A stretch of 62,366 nucleotides of DNA, filler included, from Basidiobolus ranarum (GCA_040143965.1; 12 parts of 12 records of this genome joined end to end with filler, not necessarily neighbours in it), one strand, 5' to 3'; counted from the whole stretch's first letter, positions 1-36,482 are shown. Program-made: numbers and translations. The notes: a model not told the origin generated them from the letters alone.

Positions 1-233
1 ATTTTTACCAACTTAGAAGTTCTTTGATATATAGATTTTTCAAACTTGTGCTAGAAGCCCCAAACTTTGCACACATGTTCCTGGGACCTTCCTTAACATA
101 TTCTACATGTTTGTTTGTTTACATCTTGACAAAACTATAAATGTCAACTATCTACTCAATAAATCAATATGTGAAAACCACCAATTCCTCAATTCTCCAA
201 ACCACTTCCAACAGGCTCCCAAATACTTTAACA
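1..233 (+). repeat. Copia family A LTR, 3' part
   Basis: Matches the ~350-bp repeat seen at 1349-1607, 4135-4529, 11307-11653 and elsewhere; ends ...CTCCCAAATACTTTAACA. Confidence 0.85.
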
Positions 234-239
234 CATTTA

Positions 240-624
240 TCCCATTTTAGAGCAAGAGTAGCACATAGCTTTGATTTCCAAAAGAGGTATAGCATTATAG
301 CAGGAAAGTATAAAAGAAAATCATTTTGTGGGCCTCAATCAAAATTCGGCAAAGAAGTCAAAATCTTGAGTAATTTTGAATACATTCATATGCAAAGATA
401 ACCAATAAGAGCACTGGACCTCAGACACTTTCAATAGAGCTTTCATCATCTTTTGAATGTGCAATAATGTCCAATAGCACTTCTTTTAAATATACCACAT
501 AAGCAATACATCTATTTCTAGAATGGAAAAAAAATAATGTGCCAGATAGTGCCCAATTGTGCCAATTTGTGCTGGCATACTTTTTAGCTGGTCTGGTCTG
601 GCTCAATAAAATAGAACAAATCTA
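240..624 (-). mobile_element. Putative DNA-transposon end (possibly hAT-like), copy 1
   Basis: Inverted, diverged homolog of 4712-5116; similarity stops sharply at TAG(G/A)(C/T)TTGTTCTATTTTATTGAGCCAGA...GCTAAAAAGTATGCCAGCAC. Confidence 0.5.
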
Positions 625-629
625 CTGAA

Positions 630-878
630 TATTGGCATAGGTTCAGTATATCCTCTATATGCCTGTAATAAAGAGTCTCATATCCAATTACAAAATCTTT
701 GCACAGTTGCTGTATCTATCTGAGATCTGCAAATGTGAGTTGATGCCATAAGAATAGATTAATAATATCCACAAACAACTCCCCATGTGGCCAATACCTA
801 TCAGGTACAAATCTTGCCAAGATTTCACTAGAATATATACTAATCCAAATCATTTACTCTATGAATTTGAATAACACC
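630..878 (-). pseudogene. CACTA/EnSpm (Tnp2-type) transposase C-terminal remnant
   Basis: Translates FKFIE*MIWISIYSSEILARFVPDRYWPHGELFVDIINLFLWHQLTFADLR*IQQLCKDFVIGYETLYYRH, matching the FKAxEWxxWxxxYS...FVxxYExLYY pattern of fungal Tnp2; homologous to 22880-22980. Confidence 0.65.
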
Positions 879-879
879 T

Positions 880-1105
880 TGTTGAGATTCTGATCTTGGC
901 CTACTCATACTCGAATTTGTTTGTTGTTAGATTTCAATGTCATATCAACTGAGCCATCTGTTTTTAGCTATCATGTATTAGTTCATCCAGGTTATAATGT
1001 ATGGAAGGTATGTCCTTTAGAATATTCCTTGAAATCTCACCAAGGACATCATTTGATGAATAGTATTTTTCCGCCAAGACCTTCCATGGAAGATAATCAT
1101 TTACT
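880..1105 (+). repeat. LTR family B, old partial copy
   Basis: Diverged match to the first ~230 bp of 35772-36301 (GATTCTGATCTTGGC...GCCAAGACCTTCCATGGAAG). Confidence 0.6.
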
Positions 1106-1348
1106 AACTCTCTGCCATCACTGAATCTATTGCCTCAGAATTGTCAGGAGGTTCTCATAGAACAAACAATAATACATTTATCAAACTGCTACAACAGCCT
1201 GCAAAAAGATAGGCAAACAAAAGCTTATCATCATTTGAAAAGCCATTGAAGCAAACAATACTGAAAAGCAGGGATAGGGTTGAAGTTTCTGATGATGAGT
1301 GAGCAGATACCAAGGCAGCTGTCAGCAATCTAGCCAGTTTTATTCATT

Positions 1349-2006
1349 ATTCTGAATTGAAATTTCTATAAAATATTTTTACAAACTTGGAAGTTCTCAG
1401 ATATTTAAATTTTTCAAAGTTGTGCTGGAAGCCCCATACTTTGCACACATGGTCCTGAAACCTTATTTTAAACATTGTATATGTTTTTTGTCTACATCTT
1501 GACAGAACTACAAATGTCAAATTTCTACTCAATAAACCAATGAGTGAAAATGATCAATTTCTCAAATTTTCCAAACCACTTCTAAAAGACTCCCAAATAC
1601 TTAAACAGGTTATGAGCCTGAAAGTTCCACTCTCTGTAATATTTACTTCTCAAATTTATGGAACTTTTCCCTCTTCTGAAAAATTGGATGGAATCAATCA
1701 TTAAGTTTGGAAAATTAAAATGAAAATTCTGCTGCAAGAAGGAGGACTTTGGGACACTGTATTAGGAGAAAAAACAATGCAAAGCTATCTGAAACCAAAG
1801 TTTTACCCCAGATTAAAAATGAATACAGGACCTTAACACAATTTGTCTCAACATTAAATACAAAATGCAAATTCAATATTCAAGAGCTAAAATTACTAAG
1901 AGGGTATGAAAAGCATTGAAAGACACCTACCAATCAAGTTTTGCTGCCAAAAAGATATTTCTCACAAGACAATTCTTAAACTTAAAGAAGAAGAACAGAG
2001 AAGACA
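1349..2006 (+). mobile_element. Ty1/copia family A: 5' LTR, PBS (1608-1619) and decayed gag start
   Basis: LTR ends TTAAACA, then GGTTATGAGCCT, then a decayed FPSSEKLDGINH*VWKIKMKILLQEGGLWDTV (copia gag N-terminus). Confidence 0.85.
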
Positions 2007-4130
2007 TACTCTAACAGAAATTTGAAGAGTGTTATTGTAGAAAAATCACACAATTTTAAACCATTTTGAATTGACTATGTACTTACCATTATGAAATCAT
2101 CAAGTTAGATTAGATTTTAATCAAATTTTTAAGTTTCAGGAGTGAAATTTGGATATCTTGCAAATAGTTGCACATGCTTGGCTACAATATCAGAGAACTA
2201 AGGATCAATACATATGCAAAAAATGTAACTCAAATTTTACACATTTACAACTTGAATGCTAATTTGTAACATTCAAAATCCCTTGTTTCTTTGATATATT
2301 CTCCTGAATATTTTTATAGAGTTCTTCATACCCAAGTTTAGCTCATATCTAACATGAGTTTGTATCAATATCTCCATCAAAGGCCACCATTGTATCAAAG
2401 TTGCTGAATCAACATTCTTCCAATTTTCTGGTGAATATCCTTGAATATTGTGCCACTCTGTATTACAATCTTCCCAGATTGCTGCATGGTCAACACCAGA
2501 CTGAATGTCAAGTTGAATGTTCTTCTTCTGAAGCCACTTTTGCATACTTGCACTGTGTGGTTCCCTTCATACTTTTGAGAAAATACCTCTAAAGCACTTT
2601 GACTATTATACACATCCTTGTAGTGTGACACTACTGAGGGTGCTTTGCGGTGTTTGTGCAGCTTTTTGCTTGCTTTTAAGTTTGGGGCTATTTTCAACAC
2701 TTTGAAAAGTACCAGTTGAGTTTGGAGAGCCATGAGCTTCATTTGCTGGTGTGTCAGCTTACTGAGTGGTGCCACGTATTGGATAAACTTACAAATTTAG
2801 CCCTCCTCCAACTGGTGTACCTGGTTCCATGGTGAAGTTAAGCTATTTAGCAAGTGTATCTGACTCTGAAAATACAGATCTTTGTCATGGTGCAAGGAAT
2901 TGCGTAATTGGGACAGTAGAGCTTAAACTCACTGGCTCCTTTGCTTTTCACTTGGTTTACTAACTACCTGATCCTTGAGTACTTCTTTAGCTGCTTTTCT
3001 TTGTTTTCCTAGTTGATAATTGTGCACCTTTTTGAGATGTTTCATCAATACACCTATGCTAGCCCAGGTGTTCATTGGTTTTCTTACACTTTTGCCACAG
3101 TTGATTGGCAACTGTTGCTGGCCACAGACCTGGCATAAGTGGAAAACACTTGTCAATTGCATGACTTATAATCTTTGAGTAATTAAACTACCTTCATGTC
3201 CAAATGGTAGTTTGGCTTTCACCAGTGATCCAACAAACCTGAAGTTATGTATTGTTTGCACACAATTAGCAATCACTGACTCAGGTAAGTATTATCCAAA
3301 ATGCTTCCAAATCCCCTAATAATATATACCAAATATTGAGCATTGATCCAGTTCCCAAGTACTCATTGTACTACTGAAGCTTTTGCCTATATACAGGATG
3401 GATTTCACTACTAGATTCCAAAAAGTCAGTTTTTCTTTCAAACACATTTAATCATGCATTTGCATTGACTCTGGAAGGTTTCTAACTGATCAAATATGCC
3501 ATTGGAAAGGCTTACAGGCCAATAATCTAATTTTCATAAGACTCCCTCCTTCTGAATGATAAAAGAGTTGAAATATTTTGATACTATCCATCTTTATGGA
3601 CCTGAATCATCAGAGATTATAAAAACCTCTTTGGAGCCTTTAATTTCAGAATTTAAATCAATATCCAATTGGGTTCAGAGGGGAGAGTATTCTTTCATTG
3701 CAAATATCATTGTACACACTAGTAACACATCTGTTATTATTTAGCTTGGAGGTTTTTGTGGGCACAATGTACTATTTTGCTGTAGATTCTGTAATATTGT
3801 TTGAATTAGCTCTATCAAGCATACACATACTACTAACCAAATATTAAACTAAACTTATTGAGTTTACTGTTGAGAGCCTTGTCAGATCTCAACATGCTCA
3901 TTGATATCTATTCACTAAATAGTCAGTCTAACATCAAACTTGGGATTTGTCATATGGCCAAGATTACATTGTAAGGGGATAAGCTAGATCCAGAGACTCC
4001 CTTTAAAAACTGCACACCTACTCTTTAACAACATTCCACTTCTACTTATTTAACTACATTGGGGAAAATTCAATCTGAATGAGCCATACACAATATGATC
4101 AATGTTTGAATCAATTGAGAAAGTGCCTGA
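2007..4130. mobile_element. Decayed CACTA/EnSpm-like element: terminus, accessory ORF remnant (minus, ~2273-3162) and Tnp2 remnant (plus, ~3330-4040)
   Basis: Interrupts copia gag at TACTCTAACAGAAATTT; 2015-2575 is homologous to 23750-24310; 3330-4040 is homologous to the Tnp2 remnant at 22990-23730 (GP..S...SLEPLISEFKSI, LGGFCGHN..FCCRFC). Confidence 0.6.
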
Positions 4131-4134
4131 GAAT

Positions 4135-4705
4135 TGATCAAGTATTTGAGAGCCTGTTAGAAGTGGTTTGAACAAAAGAGATATTGATGTTTTTTGCTGG
4201 TTGCCTTATTGAGTAGAAAGTGGACACATAAATTGATTCCTTTCACTTAATATTTCCTTAAGTTCAAAGTGGCAATACATACTTTTGTCAACATCTAAGC
4301 AAGCAATTGTGTGGAATTTGTTAAGGAAGGTCCCAGCAACATGTGGGCCAAGTTTGGGGCTTTTAGCTCAAATTTGAAAACTCTAGGTATCTGAGAACTT
4401 CCAGGTTAGTAAAAATACTGGAAGTAAATCCCATTGAGAATAATGGATAGTATCTTAGTGAAATATAAGAAAACTAAGTACTGAGCTATATATTACTATT
4501 TAGAAGTTCAGGAAATGCTAATTTCAACACTTTCCCTCAACTAAATGACATATGATTGAATTGTAAGGAAGGTCTAAATTTCTCAAATTTCTGTCTAGCC
4601 AAGAGTTTGGTTACTATATTGGAAATCATATCTTTGTTAGAAAAGCAAGTCATGTCAATACATTCATTTACTATAGTCTCTCTAATAAAACAATGCCTAA
4701 GGTCT
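4135..4705 (-). mobile_element. Copia family A 3' end: RNase H tail, PPT and 3' LTR (4135-4529)
   Basis: Minus strand reads RHCFIRETIVNECIDMTCFSNKDMISNIVTKLLARQKFEKFR, then purine tract AGTTGAGGGAAAG, then TGTTGAAATTAGCATT (LTR start). Confidence 0.8.
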
Positions 4706-4711
4706 ATATAT

Positions 4712-5116
4712 TAGGCTTGTTCTATTTTATTGAGCCAGATCAGGCCAGCTAAAAAGTATGCCAGCACAAATTTGCTTGAATGGGTACTATCCAGCACAGT
4801 ATATGGAACTATTAGGTATAATGCTATTTACCATTTGAGACACAATAGTTTTACTTATATGTATAATTAGGAAGAGTACTTTTAGAGATTATTGGAAATT
4901 CAAAAGATGATGAAAGCTTTATTCATAGTGTCTTAAGTCTAGAGCTCTCAATGGACATCTTGGAGTACAAATGTATTGAGAATTAATCAAAATTTTGACT
5001 ACTTTGCCTAACTTTGATTGAGCACCACAAAGTGATTTTCCTCTAAACTTCCCTGCTACAATGCTATATCTCTTTAGGAATCTAAAGCTATGTTCTACTC
5101 TTGCTCTAAAATAGGA
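4712..5116 (+). mobile_element. Putative DNA-transposon end (possibly hAT-like), copy 2
   Basis: Starts TAGGCTTGTTCTATTTTATTGAGCCAGATCAGGCCAGC; homologous to the reverse complement of 240-624; interrupts the copia RNase H remnant. Confidence 0.5.
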
Positions 5117-14732: not shown

Positions 14733-15302
14733 TCATAAATGGGTTTTGTAATGTCTTCTAAGATTAGAGAGAACTGAGAATCGTCGTTGACAGTTGGAAA
14801 ACTCACAAACATACGGCTTCTCCCCAGTATGAGTGTGAAGATGAACTCGTAGAGAGCTTGGGCGGGGAAACCGCTTATGGCAGAGGTGACAGACGTGGCG
14901 CTTAGCAATGTAGTTGGGTTGGTTTCGCTGGAATTCGTCAGTTAAATCATTCAAATAACCATCTCCTTGCGAGTAAACTCCAATCTCTTCGTCGGTATCA
15001 GGTGTGGCGGGAGGGGAGGTTGTACCACTGCTATTGGCTGTATGTACGTCAGAACAGAGGCTTGAGTTCGAGTCCGAAAGCGAAGGAAGTAACTCTGGTA
15101 AGGTGGACCGGCTATGAAATTGTTCATTATGTTCTAATTTGGTTTTTTTATAAGAGAAATAGTCTTGATTTTTGGCATTAACACATGGCTTAAACCAGGA
15201 CTCTTGAGAGAAGAGGTCCTTGATGCTAGGGAGCTGGCTGGCTGGTGGAGTCCAGAGACCATGGGAATTGCTGGTAGAGTCCAGAGACTCTGTTTGATGC
15301 AT
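14733..15302 (-). CDS. C2H2 zinc-finger transcription factor (two C-terminal fingers)
   Basis: HVCHLCHKRFPRPSSLRVHLHTHTGEKPYVCEFSNCQRRFSVLSNLRRHYKTH with a TGEKP linker; first ATG at 15302. Confidence 0.9.
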   Translation of the reverse strand: MHQTESLDSTSNSHGLWTPPASQLPSIKDLFSQESWFKPCVNAKNQDYFSYKKTKLEHNEQFHSRSTLPELLPSLSDSNSSLCSDVHTANSSGTTSPPATPDTDEEIGVYSQGDGYLNDLTDEFQRNQPNYIAKRHVCHLCHKRFPRPSSLRVHLHTHTGEKPYVCEFSNCQRRFSVLSNLRRHYKTHL

Positions 15303-15646
15303 GGTTTGAGCGATGATAAAATGAGAATTTGTAATAAAGTTGGTTGTGGAAATAGGCTTAAAACTCACGGGAGGGTTGATTCTAAAGGCGAACTAGACCG
15401 AACGAAGGGAAAGAGCGAAGAAGAAAACTAAGATCGTTGTACCAAGAAAGTGGCAAATCGGGGTGGTTTTATACTCGCGAGGGAGCTGATCTGAAACTAA
15501 GTAGTAGCTAGCTTGATGGAGATTTGTAGGTTGAATTTTAACCGCTNNNNNNNNNNNNNNNNNNNNNNNNNNNNNNNNNNNNNNNNNNNNTTAATTAATT
15601 AANNNNNNNNNNNNNNNNNNNNNNNNNNNNNNNNNNNNNNNNNNNN

Positions 15647-16215
15647 ACGAAATAGTCGTTTTGATTTTACTGCATTGCTCGACGATAGATTTTACTGCAG
15701 CCAACACTTCTTCCTCCGAGTTACCCTTCTTCTTCATTTCATCTTTTGCTATCTTTATTCGTTCATTCTTCTTTAAGAGTATGTTTAAGAACATACGTAG
15801 CTTGTTTCCGAATTGTAAGGAGATGCCATTCAAGTACGCTGTGTTTATTTTCATTACGTCATATGAGGCTATTTGATGTGCATACTTTAAGTTAATTGGC
15901 TCATATAAACTATGTTGAAAGTATAAGTCACGATGGTTGTTGATAAGCTCTCGGTAGGTTCTTGACTTTGACAATGCTGTTTGTTTATTTGGTTTGTAAT
16001 TCTGGAGAAGCGACAAGAAGACTTCTCTGTAAAAGTCAACGTTGGAAAAATTTTCCAGGGCAAAGACAGGGCCATTTTCCAATTCTTGAATAAAAATGTA
16101 CTTCAAAAAGGTGAATGGTAGCTACGAGCGATTTGAGAAGCGGAACGTACCGTGGCTTCCACCCAATACCAGCGATTGAGATTTTGACTGCTATAATCTT
16201 TAATGGTGGTTCCAT
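15647..16215 (-). pseudogene. Probable Fanzor1 (TnpB-like) N-terminal fragment, one frameshift near 16110, cut by contig end
   Basis: MEPPLKIIAVKISIAGIGWKPRYVPLLKSLVATI / FTFLKYIFIQEL...FYREVFLSLL...YRELINNH...LKYAHQIASYDVMKINTAYLNGISLQFGNKLRMFLNILL resembles the N-terminal region of Mucorales Fanzor1 proteins as I recall them; the RuvC domain is not in the window. Confidence 0.65.
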
Positions 16216-16564
16216 AAAGAGAAGAAGAGAAAAAGCAAATTGACCTCCTTTTTAGTTTACAGATAGAAAAGTTTGTCAAGCATATAATCTCAAAAAAACC
16301 TGATGAGTTACAGCAATGAATTGCACAATTTGTCTACAATTGTTTTGTTCATTTATCTCATAGTCATCTTATTATGTTTGCTTAGGTAGTGGCTTAGTTC
16401 AGCTGGATTTGGTGAATTTGACTGATTCATTTGTGACAAGGTGCAAGATTGGTAGCTTAGGCACAAGAATGAATGCCAACATGAGAGTGTGATGGGTACA
16501 TAATTAATGATCATAAATGACAGCGTTCTGTCTATATGCATATGATTAACAAACAAAAGTGCCC

Positions 16565-16820
16565 ACTGCTCTATAATCTTTAGAGGTGGTTCCATAAAGA
16601 AAAGAGAAAAATTTATTATAACTTTTTCTTAAATACTGATTATTTTTGCTTAATGATGCCAACAATAATGTCTGAGAAAGAACCGGGTTTTGTCTCAAAA
16701 ATAAGAGCAAATCATCTCATTTTTTGTGTTGTACACGTCCCAGAAGAAAAGGTGAATCGTCTAATTTGAATTTTCAGATCATCTCAAATTGGATTTTTAA
16801 TCGTCTCATTTTAGAGTATA
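16565..16820 (-). mobile_element. Candidate transposon terminus with subterminal repeats and a second copy of the Fanzor start
   Basis: Motif ATC(G/A)TCT(C/A)A at ~16711, 16756, 16778 and 16800; minus-strand end TATACTCTAAAATGAGACG; 16570-16610 duplicates 16186-16235 (MEPPLKII start). Confidence 0.5.
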
Positions 16821-17045
16821 AAAAACCCAACGATATATATAAGAATGCGAATAGCATGAAGAAGCCAGAGAATACAGAAATTAACCTCGCCATGATAGAC
16901 AGGATCATTGAGCAAAATGAATACAGAGAAATTATGGTTCAGTTAAGATAACAGTGCAAATAATAGAGGAGGGAGGGTACATTCAGGCAGGTTGTTGTTT
17001 GTAATACAAAATCAGGCGCATCATCATAAATGAAGTGAATTCTAA

Positions 17046-19419
17046 TTAACTACGATGCGATTTTTTCATGATTTTCTCTTTTATGTTTGAGATTCGTTCT
17101 CTAAACGCTTTCCTCATCTCTACGACTTTGGATACAAATGGTTCTGCATATTGGTCCACTTTCTTGATGTATTCCTTTCCCAAGTAAACCTTTACAGTGG
17201 ATATTTTTTGCCGAATGCTCGCACGGTAATGGATGGCCTTTTCTATGTACCAATTCAGATGAGGCTGCGCAAAATCCGTATACAATTCAACAAGATCTCC
17301 CAAGGCAGAGAACGCTGTAGATCTGACTTTGGAACGTATATGGAGTATATAACTAGTGGAGTCTTTCAGAGGCATGCTTATACTTCTTCGGGCTTTGAGA
17401 AGTATGCACTGGATCGGAGTGTCTGAACATTCCTCAACATTGGGGACCTGCAGAGTCTCAGTAGGTGTATTGATCTTGCTAGGCTCAGGACTACGTTGGG
17501 AATCGAATGAAATGGTGAGATGCTTTGTAGGGATCTGGCATGTAGGCCCTATTGAGTGTACAGAGAGCTCCTTTGGTGTCTTAACTTCGATCAGTCCTCG
17601 ATCTTCGACCTTTGATAATTCTCTCGACTGAGTTTGGTCAGTTGTATTGAGTATCGGAACTGAAGTGGTGGTTTTGGGATCTGAGGGTTTGTGAACCTTT
17701 GTGGAAGCCTTTTGGAGATTCGAGTTGAGCTTTGGAGGAGTGTGAACTGTTAAATCAGTAGAGGGTTTACTAATGATGGATATAGAGTTTGAATTGGATG
17801 GTTGAGGCGATAAAGATTTTGCTGATATACTAGTGGTTTGATTTAATAGCTCTACTATCTCTGGACGCTCTCCTGCAGAATTATCCGCTGGTTCGTCGGG
17901 TATATCTATATCGAGTCCCGGAATAGGAAGCAGTATCCATAAGATCAAAGAAAAAGCAACCATGAGCGTAGTAAACCATCGAAGGGATCGTCTTTTCTTT
18001 CTCTTCAATTCAAATGCAACTTGTTTGGTTGCAGATTTGATTGCATCTACATGGAATTCAAGAACTCGATTGTATACACATTGGCTGTCCAGTAAAGTAA
18101 ACTCAGTAGTGGTTAAGATGGTTTCACCGCAGATATCACCTTTGTTCTTGAGCCAGCCATGTGTGAGTAGGATATTCGAGTCCGTAAACGACTTGATGTT
18201 CACTTCATTCTTTTCAAGCATTTCCAAGATGGATTTCCGGCATTCAACGATTTCATCCACATTTAGAGCCTCAGTCCCAACGATTATTGGAACCACATTC
18301 ACCCGTTGAGAAATAAGCACCATATCACTTACATCATCGTTGTTGGGAAATGGAGAGATGAAGTAAAAGCAAACATCCACCACATTCTTTCTCGTATGCG
18401 GCGAATTTGGAAGAAAAGAGGATTCTAACGACTGAATATACTGGAGAGTATCAGAGGCGCTGCGACCAATGAAATCTCCAACCTGAATATATACACCGCT
18501 ATCCTCATATCGCACTACAGAGTTTCGTAAATCATCACGGCCAAGAAGAACGGACATTGGTAACACTACATAGTTAATCCCAAATTCTCGTCTAGATCCA
18601 AGCATTGTCGAAGAACCAGATAAGGTCTGACTGTTGGTAGGTGACGGCTCGAACAACCGGGCAAGGGAATGGCTGATTTTCTCGAGAATAGGCTCTTTAT
18701 CGTCGCCATTTGCTCCAGATCCTATAAAGATAATTCGTAAAGTAAGCGGCAACTCAAAAGTTATCGTGTCGAAAGCTGAGTTTTCCAGGGTAAATCGAAG
18801 ATTTTCCTCAAAGGCCGATGCGTGAAGCCCATGTGAATCCGCTGAAGTTAAACGTGCTTGCGTTGAATCAAAGGCACCGTCCCTGAAGCACAATTACAAA
18901 TTAGTTAAAGTGATATGAAGTCACAATGGTCTATTCAAACTCACTTCTTAGGTTCATGGTCAGGCAAATCGACCTCTGTCTTTTCCTCAACAATCGGATC
19001 TTTTACTTCCTCCGGTTTATTCTCTTCAGAAATTACCTTGTCTACATGGAAATTCTCCGAGGTGTGTACTTCGGTTTCATTCGAATGTAGATCGGTGTTG
19101 ACGGTATATGGTTTCTCGTCACTACTAACCAAAATTTATAAAATTTAATATCTCAAGCCATCCTCGCCAAGATAATAACCCTTTCTTACTTTTTCTCGGG
19201 TGAAGCCAAGTACGGACCGGGGAGTTCAACTGAGTCCAAAAATGAAATAGCACTTTGCTCAGAAGTCGAATTTCTGGAAGAAGTTTCAGAACCCAGTGAC
19301 TCCCACAGAAAAGCTTCCTCCACCACCTCAAAATCAGAGTCATCTGATTCTGATAAAAATGAGACTTCTTCTATCACCGCTTCGGATGGAGGAAACTGTT
19401 GGGTGGATTGTATTACCAT
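17046..19419 (-). CDS. Three-exon, ~748-aa protein: acidic N-terminus, degenerate septin-like domain, one TM helix, S/T/P-rich C-terminal region
   Basis: Exons 19419-19190, 19124-18945 and 18882-17046 splice in frame with GT-AG; VDVCFYFISP...SQRVNVVPIIV...E..ECRKSILEMLEKNEVNI is septin-like; TM segment WFTTLMVAFSLILWILLPI follows KRKKRR. Confidence 0.75.
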
Positions 19420-20858: not shown

Positions 20859-22860
20859 AAATTGGATGAAATTTTAATCAATTTCACATTGGGATCCATT
20901 GGTGTTGATACAGGTTTGCTATTCTCCATGTTGAAGCATTTTAAGATGTCTAGAATGTATCTAGACTGATTCAGCATGATTTCCTGATTGGGTTTATCTC
21001 TCTTGATTTGGATTAAAGAAAATAACTTAATTCACCCATATCAGTCATCTGAAAATGGATTGATAAGCTGCTTAGTGTCTGACTAAGTGCTTGTAGATCA
21101 TTTGTGGCTATGATCATCTCATCCACATATAGTGCCAAGATAAGGATCCTATTTCCAGTAGTTTTTGATGTAAATAATGTGATCTACTGTGCATTTTTGG
21201 AATTCCAGAGATTCCAAGTTGATTTTTGGTATCAAACAGTCTGTAGGCTTTGGATCCATCACAGTAACCAAGAAATACGCATTTTCTGCTTTTGGGTTCC
21301 AATTTTGAGCATTTTTGAACTGGAATTAGGCAATATGCTGTGAAACCAAAGATCCTGAGGTGATCCACACTTGGTTTTGTTCCTGCAGGGCTTCAAATGG
21401 AGTAGAATTTTGTAGCAATCTTGTTAGGCATCTGTTTTTGCTATAGACTGCAGTGGAGACAGATCCAGCCCGCTATTAGTAATCTAACTTTTGATCATGT
21501 AACATTGATCTTGCCATCTCGGCTATGGTCCTATTAGCATATTCTGCAACTCCGTTTTGCTGTGGAGTTTAAGGTATAGTAGTTTGTTGCTTAATTTCAT
21601 GTTTAGGGCAAAAACTAGTAAAGTCTTTAGAGCAGTATTCTCTACCATTATCACTCCTCAGTACCCTTATTTTGTGCTGAATCATTCTCTACCATTGCCT
21701 TGTAGTACTTAAACATAGCTAAGACTTCAGATTTTGATTTGAGAAAGAATACCCAAGTATATCTTGTTTTGTCATCAATAAAAGTCATAAAGAACCTTTT
21801 CTCACCCAGTAAGAGGTTTTTCATGGGCCCACATGGATACTCAGAATGCAATTTGTTGATTTTTAGCTTGTATAAGTTTTGAGTTTTGATACCAGTAGCT
21901 AATTTGGTTTTATTCCAATCTGTGGTAGTGCATTCCACTTTACTGAACACGAAATTGAATCCTTTAGTTGTTGCTTGGCTTACTGAGAGTAGAAACTTGG
22001 CTATATATGGTACATAGAGTACATCATCTAATTTTGCAGATGGTGTAGATGAATTTTGGTCTAAATTGAGTACAACTGTGCCCTTACCAACTGCATCTGG
22101 TGCAAAGTCATCACCTAAGTAGACTTTCCTTGTTTGGCTTGGTTTTAGGCTGGAAAACTGATCTTTCCTGTTTGACATATTCTGGCAAGCGCCTGAATCA
22201 ATGAACCACATTTCTGAGTCTTCTTTAGTGGTTACTGATAGGGCAGACACAAATAGATTATCTCTATCAGTGCTTACTTAATTTTCTTGTTCCACTTTTA
22301 GCTTTTTGGCAAAAATCCTTTTTCTGCAATCATCAATTATATGGCATCGTTTCTTGCAATACTTGCAGATGATTAATTTCCTAATAGGGGCACCATTATT
22401 GAAGCCTGTTGGATGTTTTACAGCTCCAAAAAAAGGCTGTTCCTCATTATTTTGCTGAGAATTAGATCTCCTTAATTCTTCATTCAAAAGCCTAGCACCA
22501 ACATATTCCATTGTTAATGGCTCTGATCTTGATTCTAGGGCAATTATGAGGTTCCCAAACTCATCTGGCAGGCTCCCAAGTAGTGTCATGACTAAGTCAT
22601 CTTTATTTAGAGGTGCTCCAATGGATGAGAGCTGATCTGCCATAGTTTTTATCCAATATATATAATTAAGCATAGAATCATCAGGATTCTGCTGAATTGA
22701 GAACAATTTTCTCCTAAGATATAGCCAATTAGCCAGACCTTTAGTCTCATATAGTGCCTCAAATGTTTTCCAAGCATTTTAGCGGTTTTTTGGCTGATTG
22801 TATGTGCCTCAATTGAGAATCTCTGAGATGTAGACAAAGTGTAGAGAGTGCTTTCCTCTG
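20859..22860 (-). mobile_element. Copia family B internal region: gag, protease, integrase and RT fragment, with internal deletions
   Basis: LLGSLPDEFGNLIIALESR, CKYCKKRCHIIDDC, WFIDSGA, FIDDKTRYTWVFFLKSKSE, HLRIFG, KCVFLGY, LALYVD; homologous to 31277-33330. Confidence 0.92.
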
Positions 22861-22879
22861 TAATAAAGTTTTTCATATC

Positions 22880-23730
22880 CAACTATAAAGTCTTTGCACT
22901 GTTGCTTTATCTGCATGAGAACTGCCAATGTGAGTTGATGTAACAGGAATATAGCAACAATATTTACAAACAACTCCTAATGTTGCCAATACTTATCATT
23001 ATTGGAATGCTGTTAACTAGTAAGTGCATAGTGCCTAATTGGAAGCTTTGGCTCCAGCTGATCCTCTTGAGCAATATGATCACAGGCTTACTGCTAATAC
23101 TAAGTTTGATGTTAGATTGACTATTTGGTGAATTGACATCAGTGAGCATGTTGATATCTGATGGGCTCTTGATGGTAAAATCATGGAGTTTAGTATTGTA
23201 TTTGAATAGTAGTAATGTGCATGCCTGATTGAGTAAACACCATTGATTTGACAAAATATACAGCAAGATAGTGCATTGTTCCCACAAAAACCTCCAAGTT
23301 TACTGATGGCAGGTGTGTCATCAATACATACAATTATATTAGCTTAAATAGAATATTCACGCATCTGAACCCAATGAGATAAGGATTCAAATACCTCAAT
23401 CAAAGGCTCCAAGTTGCTATCTATAAGCACTGGTGATTTAGGTCCAGCTATAATGGGTAGTATCAAAATATTATGACTCTTAAACCATTCAGAAGGAGAA
23501 AGATTTAAGTTGATAAAAATTATTGGCTGGCAAGCCTTTATAGCACTATATTTGTTCAGTAAGAAACTATCCAGAGCCAATGCTAATGCATGATCATATG
23601 TGTTCTCAAAGAAGCCTTGAATTTTCAAATTCTGGTAGTGATATCCATTGAGTATATTGGTAATACCATCAGCTTTACCCTGAGTACTTTGGTATTGGAT
23701 CAATGATCTATATTTGGGTGATTTCAACAA
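22880..23730 (-). pseudogene. CACTA/EnSpm Transposase_21 (Tnp2) remnant
   Basis: ALALALDSF...QPIIFINLNLSPSEWFKSHNILILPIIAGPKSP..IDSNLEPLIEVF...DTPAISKLGGFCGNNA..CC.FC...GTMHLL follows the Tnp2 consensus (LSLDGF, WP..NLPP..R....GP..P..D..L.PL..E, D.PA..K, D.MH). Confidence 0.75.
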
Positions 23731-23744
23731 AACTTATCAATGTT

Positions 23745-25640
23745 ATCCCTTACAGAAATTTGAGGTTTGTTATTGTAGGAAAATTGTCATAATTTTAATC
23801 CATTTGGGATTGCCCATTTACTTACTGTGTTAAAATCATCAACTTAAATTTGATTTTAACCGATTTTTTCAGTTTCAGGAGTGAAATTTCAAGATCTTTT
23901 CAAATAGTTCACATGATTGGCTACAATCTCAGAGAACTATGGATCAACATATGTGCAAAAAATGTAACTCAAATTTGACACATTTACCATATGAACCCTG
24001 ATTTGTCACCTTAAAATTCATAGTTTCTTTGATATATTCTCCAGAATATTTTTATAGAGTTCTTCATACCCAAGGTTTAGCTGTTATCCAATAAATGTTT
24101 GTATCAATATCTCCATCAAAGCCCACCATTGTATTAACAATGCTAAATCAACACTCTTCCAGCTATCTGGCAGATACCTTGCAATATTGTGCCACTCTAT
24201 ATTAAGTTCTTCCCAGACATCCACTTGGTCAATACCAAACTGAATGTCAAGTTGAATTTTCTTCTTTGGAAGCCACTTTCTGCATACTTGCACTGAGTTT
24301 CCCCTTCATACTGCTTCTCTTTCTTTTCCAAGTCAATAATTGCATACATCTTTGGGATTTTACATGAATAGGCCTATACTAGCCCAATTGCTATTTGCTC
24401 CCAAAAACCCGGCATAAGAAATATGAAATAAGTCAAGAACCTTAAGAGTAATGCCTTGTTTTTGGTTTTCCCACAATTGGCTCAAATCTGGGGGTTTTTG
24501 GGCCACATTCCACACAGTTCCCAAAATGTTTAGCCACTCATCATCAGAGCCAGTGATGGCAGCTCTGATAATCAGAGTCTTTTGGTTTGACTGTTTTCCT
24601 ATGAGATCTCTACATTCATGTGTCCAAGCAATTTTGGGTTGTTGTGTAGGTTTAATGGTCCAACACATATTCTGCTCTGCTAGATTGTCATGGTAATGTT
24701 CATACACATGGTGTGGCATTGATTGAAATCCCATATGAGAATGGACAGTGGGACAGCATGGTGCTATAGCTCAAGTACAGCATTCTCAATGTCTTGTATC
24801 ATTGTTGAGTGACTCTCTAACTGCTGACTAGTTGGTTCCAAATACTACATTAATTGCTACATTGTGGCTTTATTGCTTGTCATGGCCTGTGTAGCAACTT
24901 TGTAGCTTTTACTTACAATTGCATAAAATCATTATGGAGTTCTGCGCATGATTCCCTGGTTGTAATAATTCTATCCAATTTCTACAAAGAGTTGTTCAAT
25001 AGTGGGCAAAGTAGCCATTATGGAAGTTGACACTCTTGATGGTGTTTTGGTTGAACTTTGATCAACTATTGATTTACTACATAATTGGGGTATTGCAATC
25101 TCTTCACTTGCACTATTGCTGGAGAGAATAAATCTGGTAAATTGATAAATGCTTCCTCATTACTTTAGTTAGTATTGAGCATGTTAATCCCTTCCAAAGT
25201 TGGTAGTGGATAGCTAGACTTTTCATCAATTAAGTCCTCTTTTCTTGCAGGTTTTTTCCTTTCAAGCCCCCAGGCTTTGGCTTGCAAGCCAATTTTGTTA
25301 AGATTTTGAATGCTTTTTGAATAGCATTGAAATTTTCAGATGGTAAACTTGGTGTAATGAAACTGCATATAAACATCTTGTAAACAACTAAAGCTGCCTT
25401 CCAATACCAGATATATCTTATGAATTGCCTGATAACTCATCTGTGACACCATCTCAGAATCAGCTGATTATTTTGATGTGCTTTACCAAGAATAACACCC
25501 TTATGTAGGAGGTGTTCTTTTTTCTACAATATCCTTGTCATGCCGTAACACAAATGTTGAAAGGAGCCTGCTATTATTGTCACAACTCTTTGTGCTATGA
25601 AGGCCACAGGCTATATAGAAAAAATCATCACAAGCACAGA
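23745..25640 (-). mobile_element. Second CACTA-like end with long decayed accessory ORF
   Basis: 23750-24310 is homologous to 2015-2575 and 25020-25605 to 57280-57846; the broken minus-strand frame includes PCCPTVHSHMGFQSMPHHVYEHYH and EWHNIARYLPDSWKSVDLALLIQWWALMEILIQT. Confidence 0.5.
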
Positions 25641-26068
25641 CACTGTACAAAGCCACTAGCTGCTCAAAGCCTGGTGAATATTAATAGTAATAAGTGCACA
25701 AAATTAACTTTAGTTTTGCCCACTGAGTACAGTGGCTGTGCTTTGCCTCAAACCTTTGGTAACACTGCCAAAAGTTAAGATACTGTGGAGTTACCACAGT
25801 TATATGACCAGAATGATATAGGTCAAAATGCAACTTTAGTCAAACCAGTAAGTCCAAGCACCTTTGAGGACTTGCTGCTAGATGTTGACCTTGGTTGTTC
25901 AATTAACAATTGGAGTATATCATTGGTTGAATTAGGATTCAATGGTTTTTTTACAGACTCTTTGTTATNNNNNNNNNNNNNNNNNNNNNNNNNNNNNNNN
26001 NNNNNNNNNNNNTTAATTAATTAANNNNNNNNNNNNNNNNNNNNNNNNNNNNNNNNNNNNNNNNNNNN

Positions 26069-31276: not shown

Positions 31277-34017
31277 GATCAAAACACAAAATTTATACAA
31301 GCTAGAAATCAACAAATTGCATTCTGAGCATGCAAACTGGGCCAAAACCGGTGAAATAAGCTGTCAAACATTGCATAGAAGATTTGGCCACATTGGGGAA
31401 CAAAAACTGACCCATATGATCTGAAATCAGCTTGTTTCATGTTTAGAAATTGAAAATATCACTTAATTGGATCTACGTGAAGGTTGGATATATACAAAAC
31501 ATTGCAGAAAGCCAATTTCAAGCTCTGGAGTGATCAAATCCAGTCAGAGTCTTGCCCTGTTTCATTCTGACCTTTGTGGGCACATGAAAAGCATCTCACT
31601 GGGTGGGAAAAGGTACTTGATGACCATTATTGATGACAAATCAAGATACACTTGGGTAATCTTTCTCAAATCAAAATCTGAAGCCTTAGCTACATTCAAG
31701 CACTACAAAGCAATGGTAGAGAAAGAATCAGCAAAAAAAATAATGGAACTAAGGAGTGATAATGGTGGAGAATACCGCTCAAAAGACTTTATTAGTTTTT
31801 GTTATAAACATGGTATTAAGCAACAAACTACTGTACCTTTTACTCCACTGCAAAAAGGAGTTGTAGAACATGCTAATAGGACCATAGTGGAGATGGTAAG
31901 ATCAATGTTACATGATCAAAAGTTAGATTACCAATATTGGGCTGAATCTGTCTCCACTGCAGTGTATATAAAAAACAGATGTCCTACAAGATTACTGCAA
32001 ATTTCTACTCCATTTGAAGCCCTATATGGATCAAAACCTAGTGTGGAACATCTCAGGATCTTTGGTTGCATAGCATATTGTCAGTTCCAACTCAAAAATG
32101 CTCTACATTGAAACCCAATAGCACAAAATGCATATTTTTGGTTACTGTGATGGATCTAAGGCCTACAGATTTTTTGATACCAAGAATCAGAAGTTGATCA
32201 AGTACAGAGATGTGATTTTTGATGAAAAAGCAAATTTTTCACCTCAAATCATAGTTCTTGATCCAGAAAACACAATCAGCAGTATGCAGGAAGTGTCTGA
32301 CAAGATTCCAGCTGTATCGGAGCCCTGTTCAACCAAGATTCCAGTCCCAATTACATCAGAGGATGATTCAGGACCCACAAGATCATCCAGAAGGTGAGTT
32401 GTGCCAGGAAACTGGTGGAACACTTTTGATGATGATGCATATGCTTATGCAGCATTCTGTTATGAGCCACAGAGTCAAGCTCAAGCTCAGGAGCTATGGG
32501 AAAAAGCAATGTCAGATGAGCTTTCTTCACTTCAGGACAATAAAAAAGAGTTTTAAGTCGTCTTCCATCAGGGAGAAAGCCAATAGGTTGCAAATGGGTC
32601 CACAAAGTAAAAAAACAAGATGATTGAACCATAGAAAGGTACAAAGCTATATTAGCTGTAAAAGCTATTCCCAGACTTCAGGAGTTGATCTTAATGAAAC
32701 ATTTGCTCCAGTAGACAAGTTTAGCTCCATTAGATCAATCCTGGCACTCTCAGCCGTCCATAACCTTGATCTACATCAAGAGGATGTAACAATAGCCTTT
32801 CAAATGGAAATCTAGAAGAAGAGGTCTATATGGGCAACCAGATGGATTGTTGGCCCAAAACATCCTTATATGGTATGTAAGCAGCAAAAATAGCTATATG
32901 GACTCAAGCACACACCCAGGCCCTGGTACAGCAATATAGATAACTATTTGGAATCACCAGCAATTCAAAAATGCACAGCATAACACAGTATTTACATCAA
33001 AACAACTGGAAATAGGATCCTTATCTTTGCACTATATGTGGACACCTTAATCATAGCCACAAATGATCTAGAAGGACTTGATCACAAGGAAAGCAGCTTA
33101 TCTAACCAATTTCAAATGACTGATATGGGTGAAATAAGTTATAACCTTGGAATCAAAATCAGGACAGATAAACCCAGTCAGAAAGCATGCTGAATCTGTC
33201 TATATGCATCCTAGACATCATCAAACACTTCAACATGAAGAAAAGCAAGCCTGTATCAACACCAATGGATCACAATGTGAAATTAGTCAAAATTTCATTC
33301 AATTTTGCACCAAAATGACTAAAATTGAAGCCAGGAGTTCCCTTATCAATCAATGGTGGGTAGTTTAATGTATACAATGGTTAGAACATGTCCAGACATT
33401 GCTGTGGCAGTGGGAACTGTCAGCCAATATCTCAAAAATCCTGGATCTGAGCACAAAACTGTGTTAAAACAAATATTCAGGTATTTGACTGGAACTGTAG
33501 ATCTGGTTCTGGAATACTTGGCCACTGCTGATGCACAAAATTTGGAAGGCTACAGTGATGTGGACTGGGGAAGAAATCTTGATGATAGAGGATCAACAAC
33601 TGGGTACACTTTTCTCTATAGTATTGGATCCATAACTTGGAATAGTAAGAAGCAACCAATCATAGCACTTTCCACTACAGGAGCAGAGTATATGGCTGCC
33701 TCTGCTACTACACAAAAAGTTATGTGGTTAAGGAAGTTATTTACAGACTTGGGATACATGCAAAATATGCTATTACTGTATTTGAAGATAAACAAAGTTA
33801 TATTTCATTAGCTAAAAACCCTCCATTTCATGTTAGAACAAAACACATAGATACTAGGCATCATTTTGTGAAAGAAGCAATAGAGAATGATATAATAGAA
33901 CTTGACTATTGCCCTACTGAAGAAATGATTGCTGATGTCTTAATCCAACCTTTAGTTAAAGCAAAATTTGAGTTATTAACATATAAGTTAGGTTCAAGAG
34001 AAATACAAAATAATTAG
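31277..34017 (+). mobile_element. Copia family B pol (integrase, RT, RNase H), frameshifted
   Basis: HSDLCG, IDDKSRYTWV, LRSDNGGEY, ETFAPV, LYGLK, ALYVD, VGSLMY, GYSDVDW, ALSTTGAEY and RTKHIDTRHHFVKE in copia order. Confidence 0.95.
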
Positions 34018-34028
34018 TCAAGGAGAAA

Positions 34029-34229
34029 CATTGAAATTTGATAAATAGCAACTCATTGTTTAGTAGTTAGCTTATTCATATTCTGATTATGTAGCACTCA
34101 TTTCAGTAATTGAAAAATGTGTGTTTATTGCTCTAATTAAAAGATATATCAATTAGATCACTATTATCAATTTTCACTATTTTCTCAAAACTTCTCAAAA
34201 TCACCTCAAATTTTCACCTATGCTTAACA
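34029..34229 (+). repeat. Probable 3' LTR of copia family B
   Basis: Follows the pol stop and a purine tract (TCAAGGAGAAA); begins (CA)TTGAAA and ends CTTAACA. Confidence 0.55.
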
Positions 34230-34699
34230 GGCATGTTTATTATGGTCTAAGCACATCCAATAGTCCCATTTCATAGTGAACCATAAATAGGACAAATTCA
34301 ATTCAATAAAACATAAGTGTCTAGATCACAGAACAAATCTTGTCCAAAACACTTCCAATCCCTTAAACACTTTTATTACATAATGTACTCGTATTGGTTA
34401 TCATGTGACCGGTGATCTGCTTGTCTGATTGGAGAGCTTTTTTATATATAGAGCAACCCCAATTCTTTGAAGTAAGTAGTGCTAGACATAGAAACTTAAT
34501 ATTCCTATGCTGCCTTTCTTATATCACTATTCATATATCCTATGTGTGTACATGAGGAGGAATTTATGGATAGTATTGCTCTAATGACCTTGCTAGTTGT
34601 TGCACTAAATATTGAGTAATACAGTATGGTATCTTATACTCCAGAGCACATAAAGTGACAGAGCATATCAAAGATTCATAGTAGAGATTGCAGGATATA

Positions 34700-35771
34700 T
34701 GTTTTACAATTTAATCTAGATTACCAGTATTGGGGTGAATCTGTCTCCACTGCAGTCTATATCCAAAACAGATGCTCACAAAATTGCTCCCAAATTCTAC
34801 TCCATTTGAAGCCCTATATGGATAAAAATCAAGTGTCAATCATCTCCAGATCATCAGTAGCACTATATATGGCCTGATTCCAGCCTATAAATCCTTAATT
34901 AGAACCATAAGCAGTATGTGCATGTTTTGTAGCTATTGTAAGTGTTGTATCCTCTTTATCAAGATAAAGAAATAGAGCCAGAGAGCTATTGGAACATCTC
35001 CAACAATGTTGTATATTGTTTTGCAGTGCTTTAAGACCAGCCACAGAACCAGTATGAAGCTCCAGAGTGTCCAGAACTACCACAATAAGGAGCAGGACAA
35101 GGACTGAAAACAACCATAAGAGGCTAGAAGGCAGGAAGTACTTGGGTGTAGACCATAAGACAAGACAAGACTGAACAGGGAAGACACTTTGGCAAAGATC
35201 TTTGTTGATCACTGTCATTGATCAGACTGAGGTCTGATCAAGGAAAACATGGAACTTATATAGATATTGCATAATGAAACACAATATACTGAAAAGGGAA
35301 TGTACTGTGGCAATTTCTGGTGTCAGGATGTTGGGCATCAAAAGGACAAATTAAAATAGGGATGATGTAAGGATGATCATGTGACCATCCAAGGAAGGTC
35401 TTGGCAAAAATATGCTAGATGTGGGTTGACATGATTGGTTAAGTTTCACAGAATGCTCCAAAAAACATAACTTCATAGATGGCTACCTGAATGAACTAAC
35501 ACAAGATTGCCAAGAAAGGATGGCACAGCTGATGTGATCTCATAATCTAATAATAGAAGAGTTCTATTTGCAGTGGATGAGTGTGCCAAGATCATGACAA
35601 GAACTTTTATCATGGGAACAAACAATGTTGGCTGAATTTCCTGCACTCCAGGACAACAAAGATGTGTGATAAGACCTCTATTATTGGCAAAAAAGCTAAT
35701 AGACTGGCAACAGATCTATAGGGTGAAAAATCCAGGCAATGTATTCATAGTAAGATTCAAAGCAAGACTAC
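34700..35771 (+). mobile_element. Older copia pol fragments (integrase ~34700-34890; RT start ~35610-35771) hosting nested LTRs
   Basis: LDYQYWGESVSTAVYIQNRC and MLAEFPALQDNK...RFKARL remnants. Confidence 0.65.
35078..35599 (-). repeat. Solo LTR, family B, with 5-bp TSD AGAAC
   Basis: Inverted homolog of 35772-36301; AGAAC at 35073-35077 and 35600-35604. Confidence 0.8.
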
Positions 35772-36301
35772 TGTCATGATGCTGAACTTGACATACTGAT
35801 CCACTGCAAATAGAACTCTTGTATTATTAGATTATGACACCATATCTGCTGTGCCATATCTTCTTGGCAATCTTGTGTTAGTTCATCCAGATTACCTTTT
35901 AAGGAAGTCATGAACTTTGGAACATTCCATGAAACCTAATCAATCATGTCATCCCACACATAGTGTATTTCTGCCAAGACCTTCCATGGAAGGTCATCTG
36001 ATCATCCTTACATCATCCCTCATTGTATTGGTCTTTGTAGTCCCAAACACCCCAACTCTTGAACTTGCTACAGTATAGTCCCTATTCAGTATATTATGTT
36101 TAACCTTGCAATATCTATATTAGCCTCATGTATTCCTTAATCAGACCTCAGGCTGATTAACTCCAGTTGTCAATAAAAATATTTGCCAAAGTATCTTCCT
36201 TGTCCAGTCTTGTCTTGTCTTGTGGTCTACCCCCAAGTACTCTCCTGCCTTCTAGCATCTTGTTGTTGTTTCCAGTCCTTGTCAAGTCCCTTATTGTGAC
36301 A
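35772..36301 (+). repeat. Full-length LTR, family B (TGTCA...TGACA, 530 bp)
   Basis: Terminal inverted TGTCA/TGACA; copies at 35599, 41796, 52547 and 57847 share the same boundary. Confidence 0.8.
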
Positions 36302-36482
36302 GTTTGATCAGACTACTTATATTTGCCTGTAGACTTCCCTCCATCCCTGTTCTCCAGCCATGAAACCCCAAGGGTTGGCTTCNNNNNNNNNNNNNNNNNN
36401 NNNNNNNNNNNNNNNNNNNNNNNNNNTTAATTAATTAANNNNNNNNNNNNNNNNNNNNNNNNNNNNNNNNNNNNNNNNNNNN

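Follow-up and report, generated by a model that had tools for sequence, protein, structure and literature searches.

A probable 5' third of a Fanzor1 gene, broken as assembled, at a contig end in the genome labelled Basidiobolus ranarum

The window, by which we mean the whole stretch of DNA that was analysed (62,366 nucleotides, filler included, from assembly GCA_040143965.1), is made of 12 unrelated contigs of about 5.1 kb each, arranged in descending length from 5116 to 5089 bp and joined by N44-TTAATTAATTAA-N44 linkers, as the N-run table shows. As the contigs are concatenated, neighbourhood arguments across the N runs are meaningless. One contig (15647-20758) carries a Fanzor1 fragment at its low end and a divergent septin-like gene upstream of it (Table 1). 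Nothing recognisable was found in the other ORFs of this contig (19420-20758), and Rfam gave no match on it. A C2H2 gene at 14733-15368 lies on another contig and is no neighbour of the fragment.

Table 1. Features at and around the Fanzor1 fragment, in window coordinates.
Feature	Position	Strand	Basis and remarks
Artificial linker, N44-TTAATTAATTAA-N44	15547..15646	.	Contig end marker; N-run table, contig bounds
Frame B, most of the helical REC domain	15647..16115	-	156 aligned codons (153 in P0001), no stop before the contig end
Premature stop in frame A after the shift	16036..16038	-	ORF 16036..16215; product would be 59 aa
Frameshift junction	16110..16115	-	Three-frame translation; two tblastn HSPs in different frames
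Fanzor1 codons 1-35, frame A (MEPPLKII...SLVATIH)	16111..16215	-	tblastn; N-terminal WED strands by homology
Leader and CDS start	16187..16234	-	19-nt pyrimidine-rich leader plus first ~29 nt of CDS; direct-repeat search
Second leader copy	16565..16611	-	Truncated; leader plus first ~9 codons (ATG 16595, MEPPLKII), then unrelated sequence
Divergent septin-type GTPase gene, three exons (context only)	17049..19419	-	100% match to P0162

The Fanzor1 fragment opens on the minus strand at ATG 16215 with MEPPLKIIAVKISIAGIGWKPRYVPLLKSLVATIH and continues for 34-35 codons before the frame shifts. Frame B is then open from 16121 to 15647 (158 codons), a run whose chance of being stop-free is about 5e-5 given the base composition of this contig; its 153 codons from TTG 16106 were analysed as protein P0001. 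A start at this ATG and a later frame open to the contig end had both been proposed in an earlier, sequence-only reading of this DNA, and the sequence, the ORF list and the linker at 15547..15646 bear them out. That reading had also placed a single frameshift near 16110. The shift is indeed found at 16115-16110, but it is more than a single-base slip. In all five relatives that keep the start Met, 132 nt (44 codons) separate it from the L of the conserved LKY motif. In the window this distance is 109 nt, so that a net 23 nt have been lost: about 8 codons are gone (the HxxVTHTFx stretch) and one base is left over. It is because of this 23-nt shortening that the frame shifts and runs into the stop at 16036. 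Neither frame has a stop apart from the lesion. With the net deletion and the stop at 16036, the locus does not hold an intact Fanzor1 reading frame: the copy is a pseudogene as assembled, and from its sequence it is predicted to code for a peptide of at most 59 aa.

At its other side, the fragment breaks off at the equivalent of residue ~197 (in the numbering of P0003, a longer relative), where the contig ends at 15647. When the four longer relatives were compared with the whole window by tblastn, no C-terminal Fanzor piece was found on any of the 12 contigs. The second part of the WED domain, the RuvC domain, the C4 zinc finger of the TNB domain and any omega-RNA would sit past the contig end.

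Fanzor1 proteins are eukaryotic, transposon-borne homologues of bacterial TnpB. The identity of the fragment follows from sequence and fold together. A phmmer search of P0001 against the PDB matched the Parasitella parasitica Fanzor1 9cf0 with E=2e-28 over residues 2-152 (151/153). By tblastn, frame A is 56% identical to residues 1-43 of P0003 and frame B 63% identical to residues 42-197, while the identity of frame A to seven relatives is 60-71% over 26-35 residues. An exhaustive search of 1.84 billion representatives returned 151 relatives at E<=1e-3, of which 63 had E<=1e-10 and four E<=1e-30. The AlphaFold2 model of P0001, built from a 57-sequence alignment, is a six-helix domain with a pLDDT of 94.4. 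When this model was compared with the PDB by Foldseek, the Parasitella protein (PpFz) came first (9cf1, TMq 0.78, E 5e-8) and the Spizellomyces punctatus protein (SpuFz) third (9cez, TMq 0.58, probability 0.99); all other matches had E>0.5 and poor TM-scores. Homology to the N-terminal WED/REC part of solved Fanzor1 proteins was thus found both by phmmer and by AlphaFold2 with Foldseek. In the consensus of the 57-sequence alignment we recognise the motifs that the sequence-only reading had associated with the N-terminal region of Fanzor1 (K..W..L..V, YIF..EL, F.EVFLSL and AQQIA.YE..KI.TAY.N.I...FGN.LR...N).

Profile searches were less informative. Pfam gave no significant family for either piece, only matches at chance level, and the ESM Atlas gave no usable match for the fragment. 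A prokaryotic TnpB or a Fanzor2 identity was considered and rejected: the fragment has no Pfam match to TnpB or to an N-terminal HTH_OrfB_IS605 domain, its PDB matches are to Fanzor1 only, and all 26 relatives with a named organism are fungal. In SpuFz1, residues 21-25 belong to the WED domain, 96-269 to REC and 291-345 again to WED (PMC10432273). From these positions, frame A would correspond to the first WED strands and frame B to most of REC. We conclude, with a probability of roughly 85%, that what lies here is the first third of a Fanzor1 gene, its 5' end only, and that it is defective as assembled.

The nuclease itself can be followed only in relatives of the fragment. A search for longer proteins returned four relatives of 497-593 aa with E-values from 6e-55 to 4e-22, namely three from Rhizopus microsporus and the JGI protein P0003, which at 593 aa is the closest long relative; all four carry the precomputed label PF26935.1. 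P0003 matches PpFz1 with E=6e-144 and SpuFz1 (8gkh) with 2e-43, and its alignment runs through LIDPGRRD (DPGRRD) and DEFKTSSLCPSC. These values, with the 9cf0 match of P0001 and its fold match to PpFz and SpuFz, uphold the proposal that the fragment is a Fanzor1 of the Mucorales-type lineage. One of the R. microsporus proteins, P0005, matches PpFz1 with E=3e-104 and aligns to both structures through the C-terminal WNRD..A..NF (NRD). Full-length relatives that lack RuvC would have spoken against a Fanzor1, as the sequence-only reading had itself pointed out; because P0005 aligns through NRD, such an absence is not what we see. Together, the alignments of P0005 and P0003 to PpFz1 span DPGRRD, DE.KTSS.CPSC and NRD.

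The Fanzor/TnpB signature has been given as D-X(125,275)-[TS][TS]-X-X-C4-X(5,50)-RD (Bao & Jurka 2013, PMC3627910). A DPG-like motif occurs where it is expected in 26 of 27 relatives of at least 550 aa, and [TS][TS]xxCxxC in 16 of the 27. Just five pass the strict regular expression through RD because many gene models are cut short; our reading of the nuclease motifs is therefore based on the HMMER alignments rather than on the strict pattern. In Pfam, P0003 had only a sub-threshold match to the Cas12f1-like TNB domain (E=0.042). Pattern searches of DNA yielded no confirmed related locus among 218 matches in metagenome_contigs and 110 in viral_contigs. In their alignments to PpFz1, P0005 and two JGI proteins (P0003 and P0158) skip about 100 RuvC residues (about residues 988-1092 of the fusion protein), and by their sequences they appear to be without the cyclophilin-binding FRI insertion. 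This insertion lies in the RuvC domain of PpFz1 and is reported only for Parasitella and Rhizopus (PMC11423790, Cell 2024).

Of the characterised systems, PpFz1 (PDB 9cf0-9cf3; PMC11423790) is the closest. Its structural alignment to the fragment has 39% identity and a TMq of 0.76-0.78, and the N-terminal MEPPLKII... strand region of P0003 can be aligned to it as well. It differs in having about 100 extra residues ahead of the start of this gene, an offset estimated from the alignment of the fusion protein; the window copy, for its part, is shortened by the contig end, frameshifted, and found in a host labelled as another phylum. SpuFz1 (S. punctatus, PDB 8gkh; PMC10432273), the member for which omega-RNA-guided DNA cleavage has been demonstrated (Saito et al. 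2023, PMC10432273), shares the REC fold with a TMq of 0.50-0.58 over 129 columns. Identity in this structural alignment is 12-15%, and in the search against the PDB no match by sequence was detected between SpuFz1 and the fragment on its own. The chytrid element of SpuFz1 has 30-nt inverted repeats and 'ghost' omega-RNA loci, whereas nothing comparable is visible in the window. The Fanzor1 families described from Mucorales (four, three and ten in the species ROr, PBl and MCi, respectively; Bao & Jurka 2013, PMC3627910), with which we compared the fragment by description, belong to the same family and to the same order as its nearest named relatives. Their D...[TS][TS]xxC4...RD signature is also present in those relatives. 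Some of these Mucorales elements are described as having MuDR-like TIRs and 9-bp TSDs, whereas the window copy is a fragment only.

On the 5' side of the gene, a piece of about 48 nt is repeated 380 bp upstream in the same orientation, with unrelated sequence on either side (Table 1). The two copies align without gaps over 35 nt at 91% and with gaps over 48/47 nt (blastn E=8e-8), and the two substitutions that fall in shared codons are synonymous (CCA/CCT and TTA/CTA). The 345 bp between the copies have no other match in the window, and the 80-aa ORF that follows ATG 16595 has no Pfam match. An intron that would link the upstream MEPPLKII start at 16595 to the gene was considered and rejected, as the phases do not fit. 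The second leader copy may, though with low confidence, be the remnant 5' end of another Fanzor1 copy, a solo 5' end. With similarly low confidence, the point at which similarity begins, 16 to 19 nt before the ATG, may be where the element has its left boundary. No convincing inverted repeat was found.

Next to the gene pieces themselves, CpG content bears on their age. The Fanzor1 fragment has 20 CpG in 569 nt, with an observed/expected ratio (o/e) of 1.01 and a TpG/CpA value of 1.04; its CpG o/e ranks at the 97th percentile among 552 segments of that length. Contigs 1, 5 and 7 (1-5116, 20859-25968 and 31277-36382) have a CpG o/e of 0.04-0.08 with TpG/CpA at 1.28-1.43, and the other nine contigs lie at 0.45-0.76. 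Two of the three CpG-poor contigs carry retroelement Pol (beta-barrel) or integrase domains, and the third has neither a recognisable domain nor a recognisable ORF. The abundance of CpG that the sequence-only reading had noted is thus confirmed against the retroelement contigs. Low CpG with an excess of TpG/CpA is the signature of deaminated methyl-CpG, and methylation-driven CpG decay looks like being confined to retroelements here. The flanking septin-like gene has a near-normal CpG o/e of 0.85. The spacer at 16216-17045 is partly CpG-depleted (o/e 0.41, CpA 1.45; its neighbours have 1.01 and 0.85) and may be older transposon-derived DNA.

In Phycomyces, CpG methylation of repeats is reported to be strong, with RNA transposons more methylated than DNA transposons (PMC11258239), so that the normal CpG of the fragment need not mean youth: undecayed CpG fits a young element and also simple non-methylation. 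The nearest copy from the same species, P0042, is 94% identical over 48-49 residues with a one-residue indel, and in it the ORF runs on for another 17 codons. Three further B. ranarum fragments, P0008, P0065 and P0054, bring the identities of the four to the window copy to 94, 63, 52 and 42%; all four lie on contigs of 1.2-3.4 kb. The proposal that the gene 'looks recently active' is at most partly supported, by its undecayed CpG; the copy is broken and its nearest same-species copy is at 94%. That multi-copy relatives explain the contig break within the gene is plausible in view of the four other fragments on their short contigs. The copy is most readily understood as belonging to a repeated family and as having been either disabled recently or mis-assembled.

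Whether it was disabled or mis-assembled depends on the nature of the lesion. The gene could be intact in the organism, with the 23-nt loss an artefact of collapsed near-identical copies and a live, possibly active element continuing past the contig end. This would agree with a contig that ends inside the gene, with known same-species copies that all lie on very short contigs, as is typical of badly assembled repeats, with two frames that are free of stops outside the lesion, with the undecayed CpG and with the ORF that runs on in the 94%-identical P0042. However, a 23-nt deletion is atypical as a base-calling error, and the search for longer proteins returned no full-length B. ranarum protein. 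In addition, P0123, a partial protein from R. microsporus, shows a gap here too, though one that keeps the frame, so that the site looks deletion-prone, which favours a real lesion. We infer that the lesion is biological rather than an assembly error, and regard an intact gene as unlikely.

An origin as a host gene also has to be weighed, as the fragment could be a domesticated or exapted REC-only piece instead of transposon debris. Its frame of 153 codons is open, its GC3 of 0.44 is host-like and its CpG is normal. Yet frame B has no start codon of its own, the natural ATG being out of frame with it, and it ends at the assembly break without a stop codon. All long relatives run on into RuvC/TNB, and the copies from the same species differ widely and are mere fragments, which is what a transposon family would show. 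We give this explanation very little credence, and retain the reading of a broken transposon-borne Fanzor1 gene.

To place the window copy among its relatives, 33 representatives were sampled, 26 of which have a named organism: 22 from Mucorales and four from B. ranarum, all of them fungal. The Mucorales relatives come from Rhizopus microsporus, R. arrhizus, R. stolonifer, Spinellus, Phycomyces, Mucor hiemalis, Thamnidium, Pilaira, Cokeromyces, Gilbertella and Helicostylum; Rhizopus, Mucor and Phycomyces are members of this order. Lineages were looked up for six species, and NCBI assigns B. ranarum to Basidiobolomycota and the others to Mucoromycota. A maximum-likelihood tree was built from 54 rows and 155 columns, the rows being the clade of the window copy in a quick tree of 117 rows (83 of them without a taxon label) plus three outgroup rows. 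In this tree the window copy groups with P0042 (support 100/97), then with Spinellus (99/87) and then with R. microsporus (96/83). P0008 groups with Phycomyces (98/94), while P0054 and P0065 form a pair (100/99) inside a group with R. stolonifer (94/89). The suggestion that the fragment might represent a new family has to be dropped, as it falls inside a clade with Fanzor1 copies of Rhizopus, Spinellus and Phycomyces.

As the B. ranarum copies are found in three places among the Mucorales ones, the genome has two Fanzor1 lineages at the least, and probably three, interleaved with those of Mucorales. In AU tests on this short alignment, with groups chosen after the quick tree had been seen and Spinellus rows that fill 32-46% of the columns, a single clade of the five B. 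ranarum rows was rejected (p=1.2e-11), and a clade of Spinellus and R. microsporus that excludes B. ranarum was not (p=0.073). A horizontal arrival in this host, as the sequence-only reading had raised, is possible for a copy with Mucorales relatives in a host labelled Basidiobolomycota, but it is not demonstrated, given the p=0.073 of this one AU test and the chance of contamination. On the tree topology, horizontal transfer of Fanzor1 into the Basidiobolus lineage is possible; alternatively, several ancient Fanzor1 lineages may have been inherited vertically in Basidiobolus. A fuller scenario, in which Mucorales-type Fanzor1 was transferred horizontally into Basidiobolus, a different phylum, at least twice, the window's own lineage arrived or amplified recently enough to escape the CpG decay seen in retroelements, and intact, possibly active copies with their omega-RNAs sit in unassembled repeats past the contig ends, is one that we put forward tentatively and consider doubtful as a whole. 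Saito et al. 2023 (PMC10432273) put forward the spread of Fanzor between eukaryotes as a proposal only. A literature search, with survey supplementary tables outside its scope, found no paper that pairs 'Fanzor' with 'Basidiobolus'.

The pattern across phyla would be an artefact if the contig were a Mucorales contaminant or the assembly mislabelled, in which case the fragment would be an ordinary, vertically inherited Mucorales Fanzor1. The predominance of Mucorales among the named relatives (22 of 26) would be expected from this, and so would the pairing of two of the three B. ranarum lineages with Phycomycetaceae (Spinellus and Phycomyces). Coding sequence in the window has a GC of 0.41-0.43, whereas 0.49 is the mean gene GC reported for B. 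meristosporus (PMC7466969), the heavier repeat methylation of RNA than of DNA transposons in Phycomyces resembles the CpG pattern of the window (PMC11258239), and a low-coverage contaminant could yield short contigs.

The gene that shares the contig with the fragment argues against this. Its match to P0162, 'septin 2 [Basidiobolus ranarum]', which is recorded on a contig of 5112 bp, has 100% identity, and it encodes a very divergent septin-type GTPase of 748 aa with long low-complexity tails (Pfam Septin, 36 bits, E=4e-9). Among 5.8 billion proteins, including the proteomes of Phycomyces, Spinellus and many Rhizopus, it has just one other match, to a paralog from B. ranarum that lies on a 24.8-kb contig (54% identity overall and 71% in the core), and no Mucorales protein was matched. 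The gene may belong to a lineage-specific septin-like family; in the ESM Atlas it matched only generic septin clusters with no useful taxa. The identity of the window copy to the Spinellus fragments, moreover, is only 72-75%. We hold contamination or mislabelling to be improbable, with some doubt left by coding GC and the CpG pattern. Within the window, the GC3 of the fragment, 0.44, is near the 0.36-0.43 of five host-like ORFs, so that its composition does not point to a foreign origin.

Taken at its most probable, the locus would have the following history. What the window covers of the gene would encode the initial strands of WED and the greater part of the helical REC domain. In the solved Fanzor1 structures, WED and REC hold the guide/target duplex and read the TAM (PMC10432273, PMC11423790); an omega-RNA from the right end of the transposon is bound, the TAM is recognised through REC and WED together, and the heteroduplex is held by REC and RuvC, of which RuvC makes the cut (PMC10432273, PMC11423790). 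Between the WED strands and the helix with which REC begins, a deletion of net 23 nt would have shifted the frame and left a product of 59 codons. The assembly breaks at the equivalent of residue ~197, and the probable cause is that the genome contains the element in several copies. The copy would belong to a Fanzor1 population of several lineages in the genome labelled Basidiobolus ranarum, whose intact members presumably act as RNA-guided nucleases here.

Fanzor1 has been known in Mucorales since 2013 (Bao & Jurka, PMC3627910), and the fragment is a new, broken member of this known family, and the structure of its nearest characterised member has been solved before. Interest in Fanzor1 comes from its being a compact eukaryotic RNA-guided nuclease and a passenger of many transposon types, and to this a partial, broken fragment adds little. 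What sets it apart is only that its nearest relatives are found in another fungal phylum. It does provide a data point on distribution, namely a genome labelled Basidiobolomycota with Fanzor1 lineages that interleave with Mucorales ones. The combination of CpG-free retroelements with a CpG-normal DNA-transposon fragment gives a modest hint at the way in which transposons of different classes are dealt with in this genome. If contamination were excluded and a host-gene yardstick agreed, the locus would become a concrete case of the spread of Fanzor from eukaryote to eukaryote.
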